Below, piece after piece: positions 4,626 through 33,441 of a stretch of 38,243 nt of DNA. The translations under genes and the position numbers were made by a program. Position 1 is the first letter of the stretch. Each line of letters starts with the position of its first letter. The notes under the pieces are model-generated. The model searched no databases. It saw only the letters and a list, made by a program, of their open reading frames with translations, and had not been told where the DNA came from. The stretch comes from a virus (lineage: Duplodnaviria > Heunggongvirae > Uroviricota > Caudoviricetes), in IMG/VR virus record IMGVR_UViG_2721755660_000008, positions 1 through 38,243 of that record, one strand, 5' to 3'.

Positions 4626-5045
4626 TTAATCTTGCTTCGTAGAAGGTATAAGAGATGCATTTGCCTCTTTTGGCTTCAATGTATACATCCCACCATTAAA
4701 TGGATCAACAGCAAGCCAACCGATTAACCCACCAAACACAAGGTTTCCACCAATATACCAACCATTAGCATTGGCTTTGATTGGCAGGGTAACTGGTTCG
4801 TACCCATCCTTTTCCATAGTGATCTGGTAGCTCTTTTTGCCAAAATAACTACCATCTGACTTGGCAAGAGTTACTCCTTGTGGAGTCTTGCCTTGCGCAA
4901 CAATCACGCCTGATTCATCTTTTACCTTAAAGCTCGCACCGGAAGGGTTGCTGTTCACTTGCACAAGTTGCGTTTCATCACCAACAATAGTTGCGCACCC
5001 AGATAACATGATAGCGCCAGCAACGACGCTAATAATCCTCTTCAT
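4626..5045 (-). CDS. Lipoprotein of unknown function (possible superinfection exclusion moron)
   Basis: ORF 4626..5057; signal peptide with lipobox LSGC (MKRIISVVAGAIMLSGC); start placed at second Met (5045); located between gp16-like gene and immI region where P22 carries sieA. Confidence 0.65.
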   Translation of the reverse strand: MKRIISVVAGAIMLSGCATIVGDETQLVQVNSNPSGASFKVKDESGVIVAQGKTPQGVTLAKSDGSYFGKKSYQITMEKDGYEPVTLPIKANANGWYIGGNLVFGGLIGWLAVDPFNGGMYTLKPKEANASLIPSTKQD

Positions 5046-5140
5046 ATCAATTTCCATATCTAAAAAACCGGAAACATCCTAATGACAAACCATTCAAATG
5101 TGAAGCACGAGATAAGATCAATCCATCCGTGGACGACTAA

Positions 5141-7309
5141 TTACTCCTGTGTCATTCCGCTTAGCGATGCCACAATCCCAGCCCTCGACAAACGCTGGAA
5201 CTCTTCGTTTCCTAGTGCATCGCGAATTGCTTTTACGGCGGCCTTATTTGCCATAAATCTGCGTTCCGCCGCCGCTAATGCGCCATCACTTGCCCCAACT
5301 TTAACTGCCTTTGTCGCCTCTTGAACAGCCTTTTCAATAGCGTAACGACCACTTCTGGTTGCGGATAATTTCGCTATCGATCCTTTTGCTATTGCATCAA
5401 TTGCTCCACCTGCAGCGCCACCCACTATTGCTCCAATAACACCTCCTCCAGAGAACCCTGCGATAGCGCCAGCGGTTGGAAAAGCGCCAGACAATACGCT
5501 CTCTAAAACTGGATGAAGGCCATTCTCAAGAGTGCTAATGGCTGGCATAGAGCGCCCTGTTTGTTCAACATATCGAAGTGGCTTTGTTGCTGCTCTTGCA
5601 AGTTCTCCAAACCCCCTAGCAATCCTACCAAGCTCTGGAGAATATCGACTAATTGCCTTCACGTTTTGTGGGGTAAGAATAGTCGCGATATGCTTAATTC
5701 CAGCCTCTTCAGACTTACCTCCTCGTACCCCTTGCGATACCGCATCTTGTAATATTGATGCAATTGCTGGCGCGCGTTCCGACTCAGGTAGGGCGCTTAT
5801 TATTTTATGGAACTGACCTGTTCCACTTTTTGCTGAACCCTGCAACGCCTTAGAGCCATTAGTTACCAACTGATCAGTTGCAAGGTCTCTACCAAACGCT
5901 GCTTCAGCCTGTTCTTGTGCTGTAAATCTTGCTTTTGATAGATCATTAGCTTTTTGCCAGTCATCAAGAAAACCGCCATTTTGAGCCATTATGCGCATAT
6001 CTTCCGTTGCTGCATCACGAAGCTCAGCCATGCGCCTTGCCGTATTTGCCTCACCAGACCTTATATACTTCTGCTCTGCGTCAGCAAGTTTACTTCGCCA
6101 TGCCTTCATGGCATCAAACGTGATTCCTTTTTTACCAGTTTTAGCATAAGCAGATGCGAATTGTTTCATCTCAGGAGTTAGCGGCATGCCAGCCAAAATA
6201 TCACCCTGAATTGTAGCGTTCAGGTTTGACATTCTGGCCTTTGCGTCAGGCATCGTGGAGCGGACGCTATCCCATGCGGCCTTTTCTGAATTTTTCATTT
6301 TATCAATACTTGCCAAAACCCTTTGTTTTATGGCTGCACTTTTTTCTGATGCAGTTCCTGCTTCAGCCCCAAACTCATCCAATGCTGAGTTAAATTTCGA
6401 CTCTATTTCACTGAATGCTTTGGTGTGTGCATCCTGTGTAATTCCGGGCTTTGACGCCAGAATCCCCTCCGCCTGAGCAAGACCACGACTACCTGATCTC
6501 ATGCCAGGAGTTAATGCGTTGATATCTATTCCAGCAGTATCTGCTGCTTTTGCTATTTCGTCTGACACATTAGCTGACTGTCTGGCAATAATCTCTCTTC
6601 CTGTACCAGACTTTGCCATTTTCGAAACATCAGCAGCGGAATTTATTGCCCCGCCACCAAGAACTTGAGGTGATTTAGAGGTTAAGATCCTTCCAGCCCC
6701 AGAAAGTATCCCCTGAGCACCAATATTGATACCACCGTTAATGGCAGCATTTTGTGCAAAGTCGCCCTCCTGATTTGCAGCATCAGCAAGAGAACCGGCA
6801 ATCATGTTTCCTGCGGAACCGATGTCTCCTGCTAGCTTTGCTGGCGCTCCAGCAGCTTTTGCTGCTGTGCCAATTGGCAGGAGATACCCACCAATTGTTT
6901 CACCGGCTTGCGCGTAAGGGTCTGTCGGTCGCTCGACAGGGCGATAAACATCATCCAAAACCTTGGGGCCGCCAAGCCCCTGGCTGATTGCATTAATCAG
7001 ACTTGCGCCACCCTGCAATACGTCAAATGGTATGTTTACCAGACCACGACCAGCCTGTTCTGCAATTTGCCCTGCACTTTGACCACCAGTGAGCCAATCG
7101 CCAGCTTGTTGCATCAATGATGGTTCTTCTTTCTGCTGCTGAGGTGGAGGGTATGCTGCATAAAACTGATCTCTTGCTTCAGCCCATTTGTCACCAGCCT
7201 TAGGGGCAACAACCTCATCAAAATATTGCGCTTGAGCCTGTGCTTTCTGTTCTTCAGTTAACGCCTGATACTGTGGAGAAGCGATAACATCTTTCCATGC
7301 TTTAGCCAT
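5141..7309 (-). CDS. DNA ejection/injection protein (P22 gp16-like), 722 aa
   Basis: Position after gp20 homologue; Gly/Ala-rich large protein; start overlaps gp20 stop (TAATG). Confidence 0.8.
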
Positions 7310-27019: not shown

Positions 27020-27963
27020 GCAATCCCCCTGTCTGCAAACTTCCCTTCCCGAACTCCCGTTAACGAATCTTCTCTCAGCAAGTAATCAAAATCTGCCGTC
27101 CAGCCAGTGTCGTTGTCTCCGAAGTAAAACGGCTTGGCCTGATGCACAAACGCCCTGACATACGCTCTGAAGCCGTCCACGTTTGGCGTTTTCAGTTGCG
27201 GGATGATTTTCTTCAGGCGGCGTTTGCGTTTCTCGTTGACCGCAACAGCATGTGGAAGTCTGTCGCCGACTTCGGTGTTGTAGGCGTTCAGGAAGGATTC
27301 GTAGTCGATTCGTTCTGCCTTGCGACGTTCAGGTTTAACCTGCCCATCGCCTCCCCCATTGGGGGGTAGGGGGGTATTATTTATATTCTTGTTAATACCT
27401 TCTTGTTCATGATGTGCGGCATCATGTGCGGTTGTTTGTGCGGCTTCATGTGTGGCATGTACGCTGAAAGCCGCGCCATTACTGGCTTCATCATGTGCGG
27501 CATCATGTGCGGTTGTTTGTGCGGCTTCATGTGCGGGTGAATTGTCCATTTTTTGAGCGTATTCATGGTAATTTGTGATGGTGATCACACGCCCTTTTTG
27601 CTTCTCTCCATCAATGGAAATCATCCCCTCTTTCACAAAAACCTGAAGCATCCGCTCAACCTGATCACGGCTTGCTGGCTTGCCATGCCTGTCGCATAAC
27701 TGAAGACCTAAATCAGCTGCTGTCACAACCAGTTGACCGGGTTGCAGATGCCATTCATGACCTTTGAAATTCGCTTTGTATGGCTTTCTGGCGGCATTCA
27801 GGAGAAGGTTTTCCCACAGGGTGCGAAGATAAACATCTTTCGCCCATGACTGTTTCAGAATGCTCCGGTACAACGGAATGTAACCAGTTTTCTGGTTCTC
27901 CATCCTGTTGCTCCTGCGCTCGTGTGCGGCGCTGAAATCGTAGATTTTTGCTGTATTGCTCAT
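27016..27963 (-). CDS. Replication initiation protein (O-like, P22 gp18-type) containing the iteron origin
   Basis: 315 aa; internal [13 protein letters not shown] peptide repeats encoded by DNA iterons; followed by helicase gene. Confidence 0.85.
27375..27540. repeat. Putative replication origin: two 48-bp direct repeats (27408-27455, 27489-27536), each with four ~12-bp ATGTGCGG-type iterons, beside an AT-rich stretch (27375-27400)
   Basis: Direct repeats CATGATGTGCGGCATCATGTGCGGTTGTTTGTGCGGCTTCATGTG(T/C)GG with 81-bp period inside the O-like gene. Confidence 0.6.
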
Positions 27964-28260: not shown

Positions 28261-28557
28261 TTAAAATTCCATTTGTATTTGATCAGAACGCTCGGTTGCC
28301 GCCGGGCGTTTTTTATTGGTGAGTCCATCAAGCGCATACTTAAAAGCCCTGCTAATCGGACTGATGTCTGATGCCATTCCGAAAGCACACAAGACCGAAG
28401 CAATAAATCTCCAGTCCGTTCTGCTTATCTTCGATTCATGACAGCCAATCATCTTTGCCAGACCGCGCTGGGTAAGCGTTGACAGGTTGATGAGTAAATC
28501 TGTTTCTGCGCGATCAACGTCGCGCTGTGATAGTTTGCTGTAACTTGTTTGTTCCAT
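28261..28557 (-). CDS. cII: CII transcriptional activator
   Basis: 98 aa; C-terminus LTNKKRPAATERSDQIQMEF matches lambda CII; central HTH. Confidence 0.85.
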   Translation of the reverse strand: MEQTSYSKLSQRDVDRAETDLLINLSTLTQRGLAKMIGCHESKISRTDWRFIASVLCAFGMASDISPISRAFKYALDGLTNKKRPAATERSDQIQMEF

Positions 28558-28621
28558 TTCTTACTATTTCCATAGGTAAATAATCACCAATACTCATCTT
28601 TCGATGAGTGATTAATTAGTT

Positions 28622-28656
28622 ACCGCGTTGTCGGCGGTGCAGATTGATAAAGAGCG
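28622..28656 (-). promoter_or_regulatory. nutR-like site (boxA CGCTCTTTA and boxB hairpin ACCGCC-GACAA-CGCGGU)
   Basis: Minus-strand boxA followed by stem-loop, between cro and cII. Confidence 0.5.
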
Positions 28657-28663
28657 GTGTTAC

Positions 28664-28888
28664 TTATGCTGCCTGATTCGGTTTTGGAAACAGGTGTGGC
28701 AAATCGGGGCGAATTTCGTAAGCCTTGATCTGCCCTCCAGTGGCGTTAACGATGGCGGTAACTTTCTCTGGAGAGACCAACCCGCCTTTCAGCCATTTGT
28801 GTACTGCTGGCTGCGTTACACCACACTTGTCGGCAAGGCGCTTTTGGCTACCGACAATTTTCAAGGCTCGTTGAATTACTAAATTCAT
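28664..28888 (-). CDS. cro: Cro-like repressor
   Basis: ORF 28664..28909 trimmed to Met8 (AGAGGT RBS 6 nt upstream); HTH Q.KLADKCGVTQPAVHKW; divergent from cI. Confidence 0.75.
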   Translation of the reverse strand: MNLVIQRALKIVGSQKRLADKCGVTQPAVHKWLKGGLVSPEKVTAIVNATGGQIKAYEIRPDLPHLFPKPNQAA

Positions 28889-28921
28889 GAGCATACCTCT
28901 TGTGGTCATTACTTATAACCA

Positions 28922-28992
28922 AAGATAACTCAAGTTATAAAAAATAGCAATAACCTTTGTTATTTTACTTTGGATAACCGTAGTTATAGATT
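28922..28992. promoter_or_regulatory. OR region: three 14-bp operators of form ATAAC-N4-GTTAT (28925-28938, 28950-28963, 28974-28987) with putative PR (minus, TTGCTA-17-TATCTT) and PRM (plus, leaderless cI)
   Basis: Three inverted repeats spaced 24-25 bp between the divergent cro and cI starts. Confidence 0.55.
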
Positions 28993-28999
28993 TGTGGGT

Positions 29000-29707
29000 A
29001 TGAAAACATTCGCAGAAAGACTAAATGCAGCCATGAGCTCAGCAGGGGTATCACAATCACAGCTTGCTGACATGGTTGGAATATCTCAGCCAGCCATACA
29101 GAAGATGTCGTCCGGTAAAACAAACGGATCTCGCAAGATGGTTGAATTAGCCAATGCTTTAAAAGTGCGCCCTGAATGGCTTAGTTCTGGTATTGGTGAA
29201 ATGAGGGATGGTGCACATGAAGAACCATCCAATGTCCGTGAGTCATCTTTAAAAGCTGTGGTATGGGAAGACATTAAAAGAAACGATGACGAGTTTGTTG
29301 CGTTGCCTCTTCTTAACGTTTCGCTTTCAGCTGGAAGCGGTAGCTGCGAGCTAGAGGAATCATCGGAGTTCTCTTTGGTTTTCAGAAAGCACTATCTGAA
29401 AAAGATGGGAGTATCTGAAAGATCAGCCAAGCTAGTTAGGGTTGTAGGGCAAAGCATGGAACCAACGCTTCACGATGGCGATGTTGTTGGTGTTAACACG
29501 CAAGATACCACCATCAGAGATGGTAAAACCTACGCTATTTGCCAGTCTGATTTGTTACGAGTAAAAACATTAATCGCCACCCCTACATCGGTGATAATCA
29601 GATCAATAAATCGCGAAGAGTACCCGGATGAAGTAATGGATAGAGATGAATTTCATGAAACCGTAAGGATTATTGGCAGAGTATTCTGGTCGTCTCATAG
29701 TTGGTAA
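29000..29707 (+). CDS. cI: CI-type prophage repressor (HTH plus LexA-like S24 peptidase domain)
   Basis: ORF 28970..29707 (TTG) trimmed to ATG at 29000; HTH SQSQLADMVGISQPAIQKM; C-terminal VVGQSMEPTLHDGD catalytic Ser motif. Confidence 0.85.
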   Translation: MKTFAERLNAAMSSAGVSQSQLADMVGISQPAIQKMSSGKTNGSRKMVELANALKVRPEWLSSGIGEMRDGAHEEPSNVRESSLKAVVWEDIKRNDDEFVALPLLNVSLSAGSGSCELEESSEFSLVFRKHYLKKMGVSERSAKLVRVVGQSMEPTLHDGDVVGVNTQDTTIRDGKTYAICQSDLLRVKTLIATPTSVIIRSINREEYPDEVMDRDEFHETVRIIGRVFWSSHSW

Positions 29708-29747
29708 CCGATAATCAGAAGAAGACTTACGGAAGTGCGGAGGGATA

Positions 29748-30044
29748 ATGGAATTTCTGATAGTTTTTGTTGTTGTTTTGGTCATCATTCTTTTTGTTTT
29801 GCTAAGCATTAGTAAAAAGCTATCTCAAGTGATTGAACATAGCTCTAATCGCGCAAAAGAAGAAGAGCATCTAATTGATATAAAAGAGATTCTCTCTGAT
29901 ATAAAAATCACATTAGATGAAATAAAATACACAACAGATCTAATTGAACAGTATAAAATACCAACCCCAAACGAGAGAAAAGCAATAGATCAATATCGTA
30001 TTGACTTAGAAATCGACGAAATGCTAAGCAAAAGAAAAGACTAA
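29748..30044 (+). CDS. Small membrane-anchored protein of unknown function, 98 aa, rex position
   Basis: GGAGG RBS 40 nt after cI stop, same strand; N-terminal TM helix FLIVFVVVLVIILFVLLSI then charged helical region; AT-rich codons. Confidence 0.6.
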   Translation: MEFLIVFVVVLVIILFVLLSISKKLSQVIEHSSNRAKEEEHLIDIKEILSDIKITLDEIKYTTDLIEQYKIPTPNERKAIDQYRIDLEIDEMLSKRKD

Positions 30045-30049
30045 AAACA

Positions 30050-30078
30050 CCCGGCCTCAGCGCCGGGTTTTCTTTTCC
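30050..30078 (+). terminator. Intrinsic terminator ending the cI operon (tImm-like)
   Basis: CCCGGC-ctcagc-GCCGGG followed by TTTTCTTTTCC. Confidence 0.6.
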
Positions 30079-30254
30079 TGCCGTTCACCACCCAATCACC
30101 CATCATCATCATAGACAAGCATCAAGCAAAAGGTAACACCTTCACCCCGCACGCAAGCCCTCAAACACCAATCAATCAGCAACATTTACAAAAATAAAAT
30201 ACCTTTGTTATCCATCACTTATAACTTATTTACCACAAAATATAAATTAGGTTA

Positions 30255-30283
30255 TTGACCACACCTATAACCTAAGTTATCTT
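30255..30283 (+). promoter_or_regulatory. Putative PL promoter with overlapping OL operator (ATAAC-ctaa-GTTAT at 30267-30280)
   Basis: TTGACC-17 bp-TATCTT; operator half-sites identical to those in OR. Confidence 0.55.
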
Positions 30284-30328
30284 TAAGCCATCAGCAGGAA
30301 GCTGGAAGCCAAACGGAACAGATTGGCA

Positions 30329-30363
30329 GGCTCTTTAACTTCGATGGGGCGCTGACAAAGCGC
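30329..30363 (+). promoter_or_regulatory. nutL-like site (boxA GCTCTTTAA and boxB hairpin GCGCU-GACAA-AGCGC)
   Basis: Located between PL and the N-like gene. Confidence 0.55.
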
Positions 30364-30482
30364 AAACAGATACCAAACGAGATGGGTTTGGCGGTGATGT
30401 GAATTGCAGCTGCAACGACAGCAACCAGAAGATCAGCACCTGGCGCATCACCACCAAAGCCATTTCACATGAGGAAAACATC

Positions 30483-30791
30483 ATGACGGTAATCGTGTAT
30501 GGGAAATCAACATTCGCAGGAAATGCCAAAACTCGCCGTCATGAGCGGCGCAGAAAGCTGGCTATTGAGCGTGATGCTATCTGTAACATCATTGATTCTA
30601 TCTTCGGCACAGACAGTGAGGAGCCTGTTCAGGAAGCCCCAAGAAAGCGTTTAAGCCTTTCTGAAAAAGCAATATCACTCGGCAACATTCGTAACCAAAA
30701 TACCGACGAATGCAGTGGAAGTATTTGCCTGACAAACGTAGCCATTTACGCGGCAGGCTACCGGAAATCAAAACAACTGACGGCGAGGTAA
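30483..30791 (+). CDS. N-type antitermination protein (P22 gp24-like)
   Basis: ORF 30399..30791 (GTG) trimmed to ATG at 30483 with GAGGAA RBS; Arg-rich motif GNAKTRRHERRRKLAIE; C-terminus LYAAGYRKSKQLTAR. Confidence 0.85.
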   Translation: MTVIVYGKSTFAGNAKTRRHERRRKLAIERDAICNIIDSIFGTDSEEPVQEAPRKRLSLSEKAISLGNIRNQNTDECSGSICLTNVAIYAAGYRKSKQLTAR

Positions 30792-30793
30792 TT

Positions 30794-31246
30794 ATGGATT
30801 TAAATAAATTGGAAGCGTTATTAGAAGCATCAGTAAAAAATTTTATATCAGTAATTGATGAAAAAACTGAAGATATTAAGAAGGCAAATATTATCGAACT
30901 TGTAAAAACAAGAGCCAGTACATTTGAGCACCTTCCTGATGATGTCCGGTCAGCGGCAATTCACGTATATGTAACGGCACTAAGCAATATTGAACCCCCA
31001 ATTGATGAAGAATCAAGAGATATTCAGAGAAAACGGTTTGAGATGTTAGCCAGCAACATTATCGCGGGTTTTACACAGCTCTTAACAAAAGAGCCTGCCA
31101 GTGAAGCTGTTCGCCAGCAGGCTCAGGTAATGATTAATCAGGCAGAAACTATTTCACGTGAGCGAAAAGCATTTGATAAATCGGTTTCTGAACTTCCAAC
31201 ACCTCAACCACAGCCGCTGAACCTTCCTTCTCAACAAACTGAATAA
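30794..31246 (+). CDS. Hypothetical helical protein, first gene after N, 150 aa
   Basis: ORF 30710..31246 trimmed to Met29 (MDLNKLEALLE) 3 nt after N stop with GAGGT RBS; AT-rich 5' half. Confidence 0.55.
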   Translation: MDLNKLEALLEASVKNFISVIDEKTEDIKKANIIELVKTRASTFEHLPDDVRSAAIHVYVTALSNIEPPIDEESRDIQRKRFEMLASNIIAGFTQLLTKEPASEAVRQQAQVMINQAETISRERKAFDKSVSELPTPQPQPLNLPSQQTE

Positions 31247-31403
31247 CTTCATCAAGATGCTTTTTTGCATGTGATGATTGCTCAGGTGGCATAGCAGAAA
31301 CAATCGAAATGATTGCTTGCTGGAGCGCGAGGTTTTCAGTGCTCAGTTTTGAAACTCTGTCGTTTAAATCCTCAATGATTTTAACAAGAGATACATCTGA
31401 CAT
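31149..31403 (-). CDS. Hypothetical protein, 84 aa, oppositely oriented within the PL operon
   Basis: ORF 31149..31445 trimmed to Met15 (MSDVSLVKIIEDL) with AAGGAG RBS 5 nt upstream; 3' end overlaps 3' end of the 150-aa gene by 98 nt. Confidence 0.5.
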   Translation of the reverse strand: MSDVSLVKIIEDLNDRVSKLSTENLALQQAIISIVSAMPPEQSSHAKKHLDEVIQFVEKEGSAAVVEVLEVQKPIYQMLFAHVK

Positions 31404-31415
31404 GTGAACTCCTTC

Positions 31416-31463
31416 TTTTGACTGTGGAAACAACAGTCTACCCATTTCCTTTGACTGTGGAAA
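31416..31463. repeat. Two 14-bp direct repeats TTTGACTGTGGAAA (31417-31430, 31450-31463), 33-bp period, in the divergent intergenic region
   Basis: Exact 14-bp duplication between the 84-aa gene start and the membrane protein gene. Confidence 0.6.
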
Positions 31464-31542: not shown

Positions 31543-31992
31543 ATGGAAGAACAAGCAAACAAGATTCTCGTAGAACTACTGCAAAAAGCCAGTAATGGAA
31601 TAGACGCGGCTGTTTCATTTAGCCAAGCACAGATTCCTGATGTTGTTCATCAGTTGCTGCTATGGAATATGGTTGACAGTCTGATTAAAACATTAATTGC
31701 CATTCTAACAATCCCACTGGTTTTCTGGTTTATGAAGAAGCAGTGCCAAAGAGTTGAGACAGGTAAAATCGGTGATGAAGGATATTCATGGGAGAAGGGA
31801 AATCCCAAATACAGGCCGACAATGGTTTGGGATAGCAAAGGTGATATTAATCTTATTATCATGCCATTAGTTGGAGTTTTGGCTCTGTGGGGGATTTTTA
31901 TTATTAGTGCAGTAACCAATATGACATGGTTAAAAATTTTGCTGGCTCCAAAGCTTTACCTTATCGAATATGCAGCATCATTGGTTAAGTAA
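31543..31992 (+). CDS. Two-TM membrane protein of unknown function, 149 aa (candidate exclusion/abortive-infection moron)
   Basis: AAGGTGA RBS; hydrophobic segments LIKTLIAILTIPLVFWFM and INLIIMPLVGVLALWGIFIISAV; AT-rich codons; own terminator downstream. Confidence 0.6.
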   Translation: MEEQANKILVELLQKASNGIDAAVSFSQAQIPDVVHQLLLWNMVDSLIKTLIAILTIPLVFWFMKKQCQRVETGKIGDEGYSWEKGNPKYRPTMVWDSKGDINLIIMPLVGVLALWGIFIISAVTNMTWLKILLAPKLYLIEYAASLVK

Positions 31993-32179: not shown

Positions 32180-33148
32180 ATGAGTGAAGTAACAGATTTA
32201 GTTGTTATTGAAAAAGCAAATGCAATGACTGTATTTCAGTCTGCCGACCAGATTGAAGAAATCCTTCAAAAGGTTGAACGCGAAGTTATGTCCTTTGTGC
32301 CTGATATCACAACGGCAAAGGGCAGAAAGGAGATCGCTTCTCTGGCGTATAAAGTTGCGCAGACGAAAACATATCTCGATGGTCTTGGCAAAGACCTTGT
32401 TGCTGAACTGAAGGAAATTCCAAAGCTAATTGATGCCAACCGCAAGACAGTGCGTGATCGCCTTGATGAGCTGAAAGCCAAGGCACGCCAGCCTCTTACT
32501 GATTATGAGGAAGAACAGGCGCGGATTAAAGCTGAAGAAGAAGCTAAGGCAGCAGCTGAAGCTCTCGCAAAGCAAATTGAGTCTGACCATGAAATAGCGA
32601 TTTTGATGGATCGCGAATTTGACCGCCAAAGAGAAGAGGCAAGACTCAAAGCGGAGCAGGAAAAGCGAGAGCATGAAGAACGCTTAAAAAGAGAAGCTGA
32701 AGAGAAAGCCAGAGCAGAAGCCGAAGCAAAGGCAAAAGCCGAAATTGAAGCAGCAGCAAGGCGAGAAGCAGAAGCTAAGGCCGCAGCGGAACGTGCAGAG
32801 CGTGAACGCATTGAAGCAGAGCAACGAGCACAGCGCGAAGCAAAAGAGGCAGCAGAACGAGCTGAAAGAGAAAAGCAGGCGGCAATTGAAGCAGAACGCC
32901 GAAAAGCACAGGAGGAGGCTGAACGAATCCGGCGCGAGGCTGAAGCAAAAGAGCAAGCCAGAATAGCAGAAGAAAAAAGAATCAAGGAAGAAGAAGAGCG
33001 TAGAGCAAAGGATAAAGCTCACCGGAAAGAAGTAAATAACAAAATACTTGCTGACCTTATCAAGGTTGGTGCATCAGAAGATGTTGCTAAAAATATCATA
33101 ACAGCCATCGTAAAAGGCGAAGTATTCGCAACAAAAATAACCTACTAA
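32180..33148 (+). CDS. Hypothetical protein with ~150-residue E/R/K/A-rich coiled-coil repeat region, 322 aa
   Basis: GGAGG RBS; low-complexity central region (AEAKAKAEIEAAARREAEAKAAAERAERERIEAEQRAQ...). Confidence 0.7.
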   Translation: MSEVTDLVVIEKANAMTVFQSADQIEEILQKVEREVMSFVPDITTAKGRKEIASLAYKVAQTKTYLDGLGKDLVAELKEIPKLIDANRKTVRDRLDELKAKARQPLTDYEEEQARIKAEEEAKAAAEALAKQIESDHEIAILMDREFDRQREEARLKAEQEKREHEERLKREAEEKARAEAEAKAKAEIEAAARREAEAKAAAERAERERIEAEQRAQREAKEAAERAEREKQAAIEAERRKAQEEAERIRREAEAKEQARIAEEKRIKEEEERRAKDKAHRKEVNNKILADLIKVGASEDVAKNIITAIVKGEVFATKITY

Positions 33149-33172: not shown

Positions 33173-33304
33173 ATGATTTACGCAATCGCGGGAGGCGCTC
33201 GCATGGGTGCCTTCCAATTAAATGAATCTTTACTTGAACGAATCACCCGTAAATTACGTGACGGATGGAAAAGAGTTGAGGTCTTATTATGCGCAATGAA
33301 ATAG
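33173..33304 (+). CDS. cIII: CIII-like FtsH inhibitor (43 aa)
   Basis: Hand-translated: MIYAIAGGARMGAFQLNESLLERITRKLRDGWKRVEVLLCAMK; core ESLLERITRKLRDGWKR as in lambda CIII; GGAA RBS. Confidence 0.7.
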   Translation: MIYAIAGGARMGAFQLNESLLERITRKLRDGWKRVEVLLCAMK

Positions 33305-33441
33305 CCATCAATCACCAGATGCTTCGTGCTGCACAGAACAAAGCAGTAATAGCCAGATTTATTGGTGATTCAAAAATGTGGCTTGAAGCAAATAAAGCGA
33401 TGAAATCAGCTATCAACCTTCCGTGGTATCGCAGGAAATGA
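33289..33441 (+). CDS. kil: Kil-like small protein (50 aa)
   Basis: Hand-translated: MRNEIAINHQMLRAAQNKAVIARFIGDSKMWLEANKAMKSAINLPWYRRK; GAGGT RBS; position after cIII; FIGD motif recalled from lambda Kil. Confidence 0.45.
   Translation: MRNEIAINHQMLRAAQNKAVIARFIGDSKMWLEANKAMKSAINLPWYRRK

Follow-up and report, generated by a model that had tools for sequence, protein, structure and literature searches.

Which role is played by a gene that travels directly behind the repressor of a lambdoid prophage? No other part of such a prophage is expressed as reliably in the lysogen as the cI–N interval, from which RexAB and BstA are already known. The question is raised again by IMG/VR virus record IMGVR_UViG_2721755660_000008 (positions 1 to 38,243; the window, meaning the whole stretch of 38,243 nucleotides analysed here), an E. 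coli prophage, P22-like and almost complete, that belongs to the HK620/Sf6 type; HK620 is 96% identical over ∼69% of the first 25 kb of the window. The cI–N slot of this prophage holds an open reading frame (ORF) for a 98-residue single-pass membrane protein, hereafter ORF98. Its family is new, very small and uncharacterised, in a slot of an already known kind. An earlier reading of the DNA letters by a model (the original prediction) had put it forward as a candidate lysogen-expressed exclusion or defence gene.

ORF98 is a real gene under purifying selection

Comparison of ORF98 with its Citrobacter copies, which are 74–77% identical in protein, gave a ratio of nonsynonymous to synonymous substitution (dN/dS) of 0.15–0.17, with dS of ∼0.8 and dN of ∼0.13. 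ORF98 is a real gene under purifying selection. The frame has a G+C content of 30.3% (26.3% at third codon positions), compared with 43.6% (38.6%) for cI and 47.2% G+C for the whole window. At the composition of ORF98 the chance of 98 open codons is 1.6 × 10−4, and 5 of 2000 shuffles reached its open-frame length. The low G+C content, annotation limited to 'hypothetical protein' and the existence of truncated or altered family variants (P0005, P0010 and P0011) would suit a chance ORF in an AT-rich spacer or a decaying remnant. This explanation is effectively refuted by such a dN/dS at that synonymous divergence, by a length and architecture that persist down to 35–40% identity within the family, by the improbability of the open frame, and by the conservation of the ribosome-binding site and the terminator. 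The antisense ORFs at 29603–29809 and 29825–29932 were ruled out as true genes by the purifying selection on the sense frame and its conserved product.

ORF98 matches PHROG 18389, a family without functional annotation, over its full length (E = 1.8 × 10−61, 205 bits, residues 1–98 against profile positions 1–98). A profile search of 1.84 billion representative proteins returned 14 family members, all of 94–126 residues; those with a named source come from E. coli, Citrobacter or Yersinia frederiksenii, and the remainder are metagenomic. All 17 aligned family members have a common plan consisting of an N-terminal anchor, a variable acidic linker and a conserved helix-turn-helix. In ORF98, residues 3–21 form the sole hydrophobic segment (mean Kyte-Doolittle hydropathy 3.67; next best 0.44), which contains no polar, small or charged residues, and the 76-residue tail carries 14 K+R and 18 D+E. 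Across the family the anchor keeps its hydrophobicity only. The core spans residues ∼56 to 93 and bears the motif IKYTTDxIExYKLPxxxERxxIDQxRIDxEID, in which Y69, P72, D81 and E88 are invariant in the 17-sequence alignment.

Structure prediction, suggested along with the original prediction, was performed with AlphaFold2 on a 7-sequence alignment. The model has a mean predicted local distance difference test score (pLDDT) of 80 and contains three helices (residues 2–38, 45–68 and 74–96), with a low-confidence linker at 37–40. Together with the hydropathy profile it bears out the predicted 98-residue protein with one N-terminal membrane helix and a charged helical tail. The helices are coiled-coil-like, with Ile at heptad positions 45, 52, 59 and 66. 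No K or R precedes the anchor in any of the 17 members, and one to three follow within ten residues after it. On the positive-inside rule, this distribution predicts a cytoplasmic location for the conserved domain and points to an N-out/C-in topology.

The surroundings of ORF98 follow the lambda map, in the order cI, ORF98, terminator, OL/PL, nutL and N on the plus strand, with a cro-like gene on the minus strand; the assignment of ORF98 to the rex slot was thus correct. The features, in window coordinates, are as follows.

28664–28909, minus strand: cro-like gene, divergent from cI, with Pfam matches to YdaS_toxin, HTH_3 and P22_Cro
28911–28988, unstranded: OR region, with operator-like ATAAC/GTTAT half-sites between cro and cI
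29000–29707, plus strand: cI-type repressor, 235 residues from the RefSeq ATG, HTH_3 and Peptidase_S24 (E = 1.6 × 10−17)
29708–29738, plus strand: cI–ORF98 spacer, probable degenerate relic of a lambda-type cI 3′ end
29739–29744, plus strand: Shine-Dalgarno sequence GGAGGG, 3–4 nt upstream of the ORF98 ATG
29748–30044, plus strand: ORF98, 98 residues, ATG start, single-pass membrane protein of PHROG 18389
29754–29810, plus strand: membrane anchor, codons 3–21 FLIVFVVVLVIILFVLLSI, predicted N-out/C-in
29877–30035, plus strand: conserved helix-turn(YKxP)-helix domain, codons 44–96, predicted cytoplasmic, the most conserved part of the family
30049–30076, plus strand: intrinsic terminator that would close the cI–ORF98 transcript, equivalent of lambda tIMM
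30199–30285, plus strand: OL operators and PL, from the promoter scan, with operator repeats common to OR
30329–30363, plus strand: putative nutL, boxA-like GGCTCTTTAAC and boxB hairpin GCGCTGACAAAGCGC
30483–30791, plus strand: N antiterminator of the P22 gene-24 type, PF25694 N_peptide (E = 1.5 × 10−38), phrog_271

The start of ORF98 lies 40 nt past the cI stop codon (29705–29707) and behind a strong GGAGG(G), as had been described; GGAG also precedes the homologues. The interval originally assigned to the gene, 29748–30078, has the right start, and its end takes in the terminator, ORF98 itself ending at 30044. The predicted clean terminator ahead of OL/PL is present. It consists of a 7-bp stem with 6 G-C pairs at 30049–30068 followed by TTTCTTTT, has a folding energy of −17.3 kcal/mol (z = −2.5), and looks bidirectional because of an A-run upstream of the stem. 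This terminator is conserved 3′ of the ORF98 homologues at loci L004, L006, L041, L042 and L044.

The original claim of translational linkage to cI does not survive the 40-nt gap and the independent Shine-Dalgarno sequence; the link is transcriptional, both genes being on the same strand with a spacer free of terminators. That spacer also has no significant fold (RNA folding z = 0.09), hence no attenuator. No separate promoter for ORF98 could be recognised, and the gene is on the cI strand; transcription is therefore expected to start at the repressor promoters, and the gene layout suggests co-transcription with cI from PRM and PRE. At L044 repressor and homologue are separated by 1 nt, so that no promoter could fit between the two genes.

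The regulatory sites flanking this operon share their repeats. D5, D11, I2, I4 and I6 of the OR region also occur in the OL region, and the ATAAC/GTTAT half-sites of OL are common to the cro–cI intergenic region, within which (28911–28988) PRM and PR should lie. PL was recognised in the promoter scan by a −35 element TTGACC at 30255–30260 and a −10 element TATCTT at 30278–30283 with 17-nt spacing. The sequence at 30329–30363 is probably a nutL of the P22 type; an Rfam search of 28400–31400 gave no match, nutL included. The cI product also matches phrog_4 (transcriptional repressor; E = 2.1 × 10−53), and an alternative in-frame TTG start is possible upstream, at 28970. In RefSeq copies a 74-residue product is annotated inside the cro-like ORF.

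Of 5426 complete E. coli genomes, 99 carry ORF98; every copy is chromosomal and is labelled simply as a 'hypothetical protein'. Many of these genomes are listed as O26 or O111, and the gene also occurs in an extraintestinal pathogenic E. coli (ExPEC) strain, XM (100% identical). In the O26:H11 strain 11368 the gene lies within a P22-like prophage, with no stx annotated in the stretch read. Thirty IMG/VR contigs carry ORF98, as does one deposited phage, the Shiga toxin (Stx) 1a-converting phage Stx1a_10051; a tblastn search of the phage collection found this single phage only, and a scan of species-representative genomes found no relative. In E. coli strain 3CM (hit H78), homology to the window ends inside ORF98 at ∼29858, and the 75-residue variant annotated there (P0010) has a different, non-hydrophobic N-terminus, which suggests a rearranged or disrupted copy.

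A hotspot with several interchangeable cassettes, ORF98 among them

The fidelity of the family to its slot was counted over members with E ≤ 1 × 10−8 and readable surroundings. In all nine distinct immunity regions read (the window type, L004, L006/L008, L041/L039, L040, L042/L043, L044/L045, L055 and L056), an S24 repressor is followed by the ORF98 homologue and then by N. The more distant P0021 (E = 3.5 × 10−5) and P0023 (E = 1.9 × 10−4) have other surroundings and were left out of the count. The family was seen in lambdoid immunity regions only, never in a chromosomal context. The gap between repressor and homologue ranges from 1 to 54 nt across the family and is 12–15 nt in the closest relatives.

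The repressors themselves are diverse, with pairwise identities of 18–67% among the seven loci compared, and their similarity does not follow that of the ORFs: window and L004 share 26% identity in cI and 77% in the ORF. Repressors flanking the Citrobacter homologues are only 20–26% identical to the window cI, and at the DNA level the window and the Citrobacter loci are homologous from the ribosome-binding site to the terminator only. The homologues are AT-rich in seven of seven loci (ORF G+C fraction 0.30–0.39 vs 0.43–0.47 for cI), and most are then followed by a terminator. The proposal that ORF98 is an AT-rich, horizontally acquired gene is upheld by these comparisons. In E. coli the segment comprising cro, cI, ORF98, the terminator and OL/PL stays together, with 94–100% identity, and the cro-like gene is 99–100% identical across all ORF98-bearing E. 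coli and IMG/VR loci; cII and N vary.

ORF98 is one of several interchangeable cassettes in this hotspot. Where cro is the same and cI is at least 93% identical, the slot instead holds a DUF3024 gene (PADLOC defence candidate PDC-S43, E = 1.5 × 10−41), with or without PDC-M24A/B-like DUF6978/DUF1828 genes. Other cargo behind the same cro/cI type consists of a 120-residue and a 42-residue ORF, and behind a 79%-identical cI the slot contains only an antisense 69-residue gene (phrog_3946), with no sense-strand gene annotated. ORF98 is dispensable for immunity, as the same cro/cI type works with unrelated cargo. The alternative-cargo loci, all from E. coli prophages whose immunity type is the same or closely related, are as follows.

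L052, 3746–5411
L049, 3746–4810
L051, 2954–3460
L050, 3861–4070

Mosaic diversity is known from the cI–N interval, which is occupied by rexAB in lambda and by bstA in BTP1 (Owen et al. 2021, PMC8585504); the slot is highly transcribed, and bstA is presumed to use the promoter of the repressor (PMC8585504). Judged by the features of morons (Juhala et al. 2000, as summarised in PMC3594210), ORF98 differs in composition from its flanking genes and is variably present among close phages. A moron also has its own promoter and terminator; the terminator is present, and the sole promoter candidate is a 9/12 match inside cI. ORF98 is better described as promoterless operon cargo. At the Citrobacter-type loci L004 (6324–6530), L006 (6324–6548) and L008 (6324–6548), a gene of 68–74 residues on the minus strand (phrog_3975, unknown function) converges from the OL side on the same bidirectional terminator; the window does not carry it.

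Traces of cassette exchange are found at the repressor 3′ end. In the sibling loci, the 27–28 nt that lie 3′ of the cI stop (L051 2709–2736; L052 3709–3736) are identical at 25–26 of 27 positions to lambda CAGTGGCCTGAAGAGACGTTTGGCTGA, the last nine codons of lambda cI (QWPEETFG*). The corresponding relic in the window, 29708–29738, has decayed to 12/17 identity with the lambda cI end. Conversely, lambda DNA (L053) just 3′ of its cI stop matches the window-type cI 3′ end at 26 of 33 positions, and the Citrobacter homologues of ORF98 follow a cI that truly ends in QWPEETFG. Two alternative repressor 3′ ends are thus arranged in tandem, in reversed order in different phages. These tandem relics are probable short homology patches for swapping downstream cargo between immunity types, and the window spacer is probably a recombination joint. 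The 40-nt gap of the window, as against 12–15 nt in the closest relatives, would result from the tandem relic.

Possible functions of the ORF98 protein

A superinfection-exclusion or defence role is our best guess for ORF98, and a tentative one. ORF98 and cI would share a transcript, started at PRM in the lysogen and at PRE while lysogeny is being established, that ends at 30049–30076, and the GGAGG ribosome-binding site of ORF98 would permit independent translation. Residues 3–21 would insert the protein in the inner membrane with the N-terminus outside, placing a flexible acidic linker and a probably oligomerising helix-turn-helix (44–96) on the cytoplasmic face. The aliphatic, poorly conserved anchor may be a tether only, and the activity would reside in the conserved hairpin, which would bind a membrane-associated, conserved partner. 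As the most likely outcome, superinfecting phages would be excluded at or just after DNA entry, ORF98 working as a non-enzymatic inner-membrane exclusion protein in the manner of HK97 gp15 or P22 SieA. Exclusion is favoured because the slot is known to house the lysogen-expressed rexAB and bstA (PMC8585504), and because the layout of ORF98 resembles that of HK97 gp15, an inner-membrane exclusion protein (PMC3594210).

Several points weigh against this proposal. The promoter scan found a weak site at 29673–29701 in the 3′ end of cI (9/12 matches), of a kind no more frequent than expected by chance. Looking up the accession numbers and the PHROG identifier in the literature turned up no expression or phenotype data on ORF98. 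The conserved domain is predicted to be cytoplasmic, yet the conduits for DNA delivery are built in the periplasm and membrane. The strict linkage to repressor genes could be equally compatible with a role in lysogeny control. Homology gave no direction: Pfam, PADLOC and NCBIfam searches of ORF98, and a Pfam search of all 17 family members, returned sub-threshold matches only, for which the membrane segment or the coiled coil was responsible; among PDB sequences a profile search reached no E value lower than 0.38; no matching fold was found; and no homology to known defence or superinfection-exclusion proteins was found by a PADLOC search and by hhalign with gp15.

Single-gene abortive-infection proteins exist, and ORF98 might be one: the hairpin would sense a product of the superinfecting phage, and the protein would oligomerise and damage the membrane, so that the cell is killed or arrested ahead of the completion of the phage cycle, in RexAB fashion though through a single gene. 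The membrane location and the coiled-coil-like helices, with their regularly spaced isoleucines, would permit oligomerisation, and the slot is that of rexAB and bstA, both abortive-infection systems (PMC8585504). We nevertheless consider such an effector unlikely, as the bland, less conserved anchor, devoid of polar, small and charged residues, fits a pore or channel poorly, and the window contains no partner sensor gene and no match to RexA, RexB or any other PADLOC model. A similarly low probability is given to ORF98 as a modulator of the lysis–lysogeny choice, a membrane-tethered protein made with the repressor that tunes repressor or cII stability, or induction; its targets could be RecA-stimulated cleavage or the membrane protease FtsH/HflKC. 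Phage 434 Hex reportedly acts on RecA-stimulated repressor cleavage. The family stands behind S24-type repressors of nine different immunity types, expression from PRE would coincide with the lysogeny decision, FtsH and HflKC are at the same membrane face, and a cytoplasmic domain conserved between phages of Escherichia, Citrobacter and Yersinia points to a host target that is itself conserved. Against modulation, the same cro/cI type works with unrelated cargo, a 79%-identical cI has no annotated sense-strand gene in the slot, the phage has a lambda-like cIII of its own at 33173–33304, and BstA is equally repressor-linked yet a defence protein (PMC8585504). ORF98 as a stand-in for a missing cIII was ruled out, lambda-like cIII and kil being present at 33173–33441.

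In another reading, which we regard as rather improbable, ORF98 would not serve defence but assist the immunity switch as a membrane-tethered co-factor, with PRM and PRE supplying it and the repressor at a fixed ratio. Its hairpin would bind a conserved host component at the inner membrane, such as FtsH/HflKC or RecA, and thereby tune how lysogeny is established or induced; this would explain why the family stands behind S24 repressors of nine specificities. A host-fitness or lysogenic-conversion moron unrelated to phages, contributing for example to envelope-stress tolerance or a virulence-associated trait, likewise has little probability. It would accord with the occurrence in 99 of the 5426 complete E. 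coli genomes, many of them O26 or O111, with the ExPEC strain and the Stx1a-converting phage, and with the service of many small membrane proteins in stress responses (PMC3594210). In the predicted topology, though, the conserved domain is not surface-exposed, the family occurs only in lambdoid immunity regions and never in a chromosomal context, and no similarity of ORF98 to known virulence factors was seen.

The ORF98 family is a compact single-gene candidate in the cI–N slot of E. coli, Citrobacter and Yersinia prophages, with no detectable relatives. If phage exclusion is its function, it would represent a new family of non-enzymatic membrane exclusion proteins, and ORF98 would affect which phages, therapeutic and Stx phages included, infect such lysogens. 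Without an anti-phage effect, the strict association with repressors would still call for an explanation.

Other genes of the window deserve mention. A predicted lipoprotein of 143 residues (4626–5057, minus strand; signal ...AIMLSGC; phrog_6823, unknown function) is a possible exclusion candidate; its weak Cor-like match is limited to the signal peptide, and its gene lies between a 722-residue ORF (5141–7309) and the gene for the Ant anti-repressor. In P22, sieA occupies about this position. Two arrays of four 12-nt repeats (CATCATGTGCGG) at 27408–27458 and 27489–27536, inside the O-like replication initiator gene, encode a repeated His/Ala-rich peptide and are probably origin iterons. Directly after N, a 150-residue ORF (30794–31246, plus strand) without significant PHROG match overlaps a convergent 98-residue ORF (31149–31445, minus strand). 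Further 3′ of N, on the plus strand, are a 149-residue protein with hydrophobic membrane-like segments (31543–31992; phrog_3054) and a 322-residue protein with a long Lys/Glu/Ala-rich repetitive helical region (32180–33148; phrog_1376/21365).

Comparison with known systems

ORF98 shares with lambda rexA–rexB the slot after the cI stop and before tIMM, OL/PL and N. The two would also be alike in being promoterless and dependent on PRM and PRE, in giving a lysogen product and in involving a membrane protein, transcription of ORF98 being predicted from its layout. RexAB differs in combining a cytoplasmic sensor with a multi-pass membrane protein, whereas ORF98 is a single single-pass protein, and searches of PADLOC, Pfam and PHROG revealed no homology of ORF98 to RexA or RexB.

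BstA is a much larger, non-membrane protein. In Salmonella phage BTP1 its gene lies directly 3′ of cI and is followed by a Rho-independent terminator, which is the layout of ORF98, and the two families are alike in their fidelity to repressor loci. BstA is highly expressed in the lysogen, and its family has been described as 'strikingly' linked with the repressor loci of prophages (PMC8585504). For ORF98, searches of PADLOC, Pfam and PHROG gave no match of the BstA kind.

P22 SieA is a prophage-expressed inner-membrane protein; it prevents DNA injection and does not need other phage proteins (PMC10883804). The phage type is the same, the window being a P22-like (HK620/Sf6-like) prophage. SieA has ∼162 residues and three predicted membrane segments, compared with 98 residues and one hydrophobic segment in ORF98, and sieA lies near the ejection-protein and immI genes, whereas ORF98 is in the cI operon. 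No similarity between SieA and ORF98 was detected.

The closest parallel in design is found with HK97 gp15 (YebO-like), an inner-membrane superinfection-exclusion moron that blocks DNA entry without an enzymatic domain (PMC3594210). Both proteins start with ME- and have one N-terminal membrane segment, basic residues and a charged helical tail; both are encoded by an AT-rich cassette with its own terminator, expressed in the prophage for gp15 and predicted to be so for ORF98. An hhalign comparison of gp15 with the ORF98 family profile (A5) gave a probability of 1.7% over 8 aligned columns, and hence no homology. Unlike ORF98, which resides in the repressor operon, gp15 has 62 residues and is encoded in the tail operon with its own promoter; unlike gp15, ORF98 has an additional conserved helix-turn-helix domain. 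The resemblance to gp15 is therefore one in a possible way of working, not in family membership.
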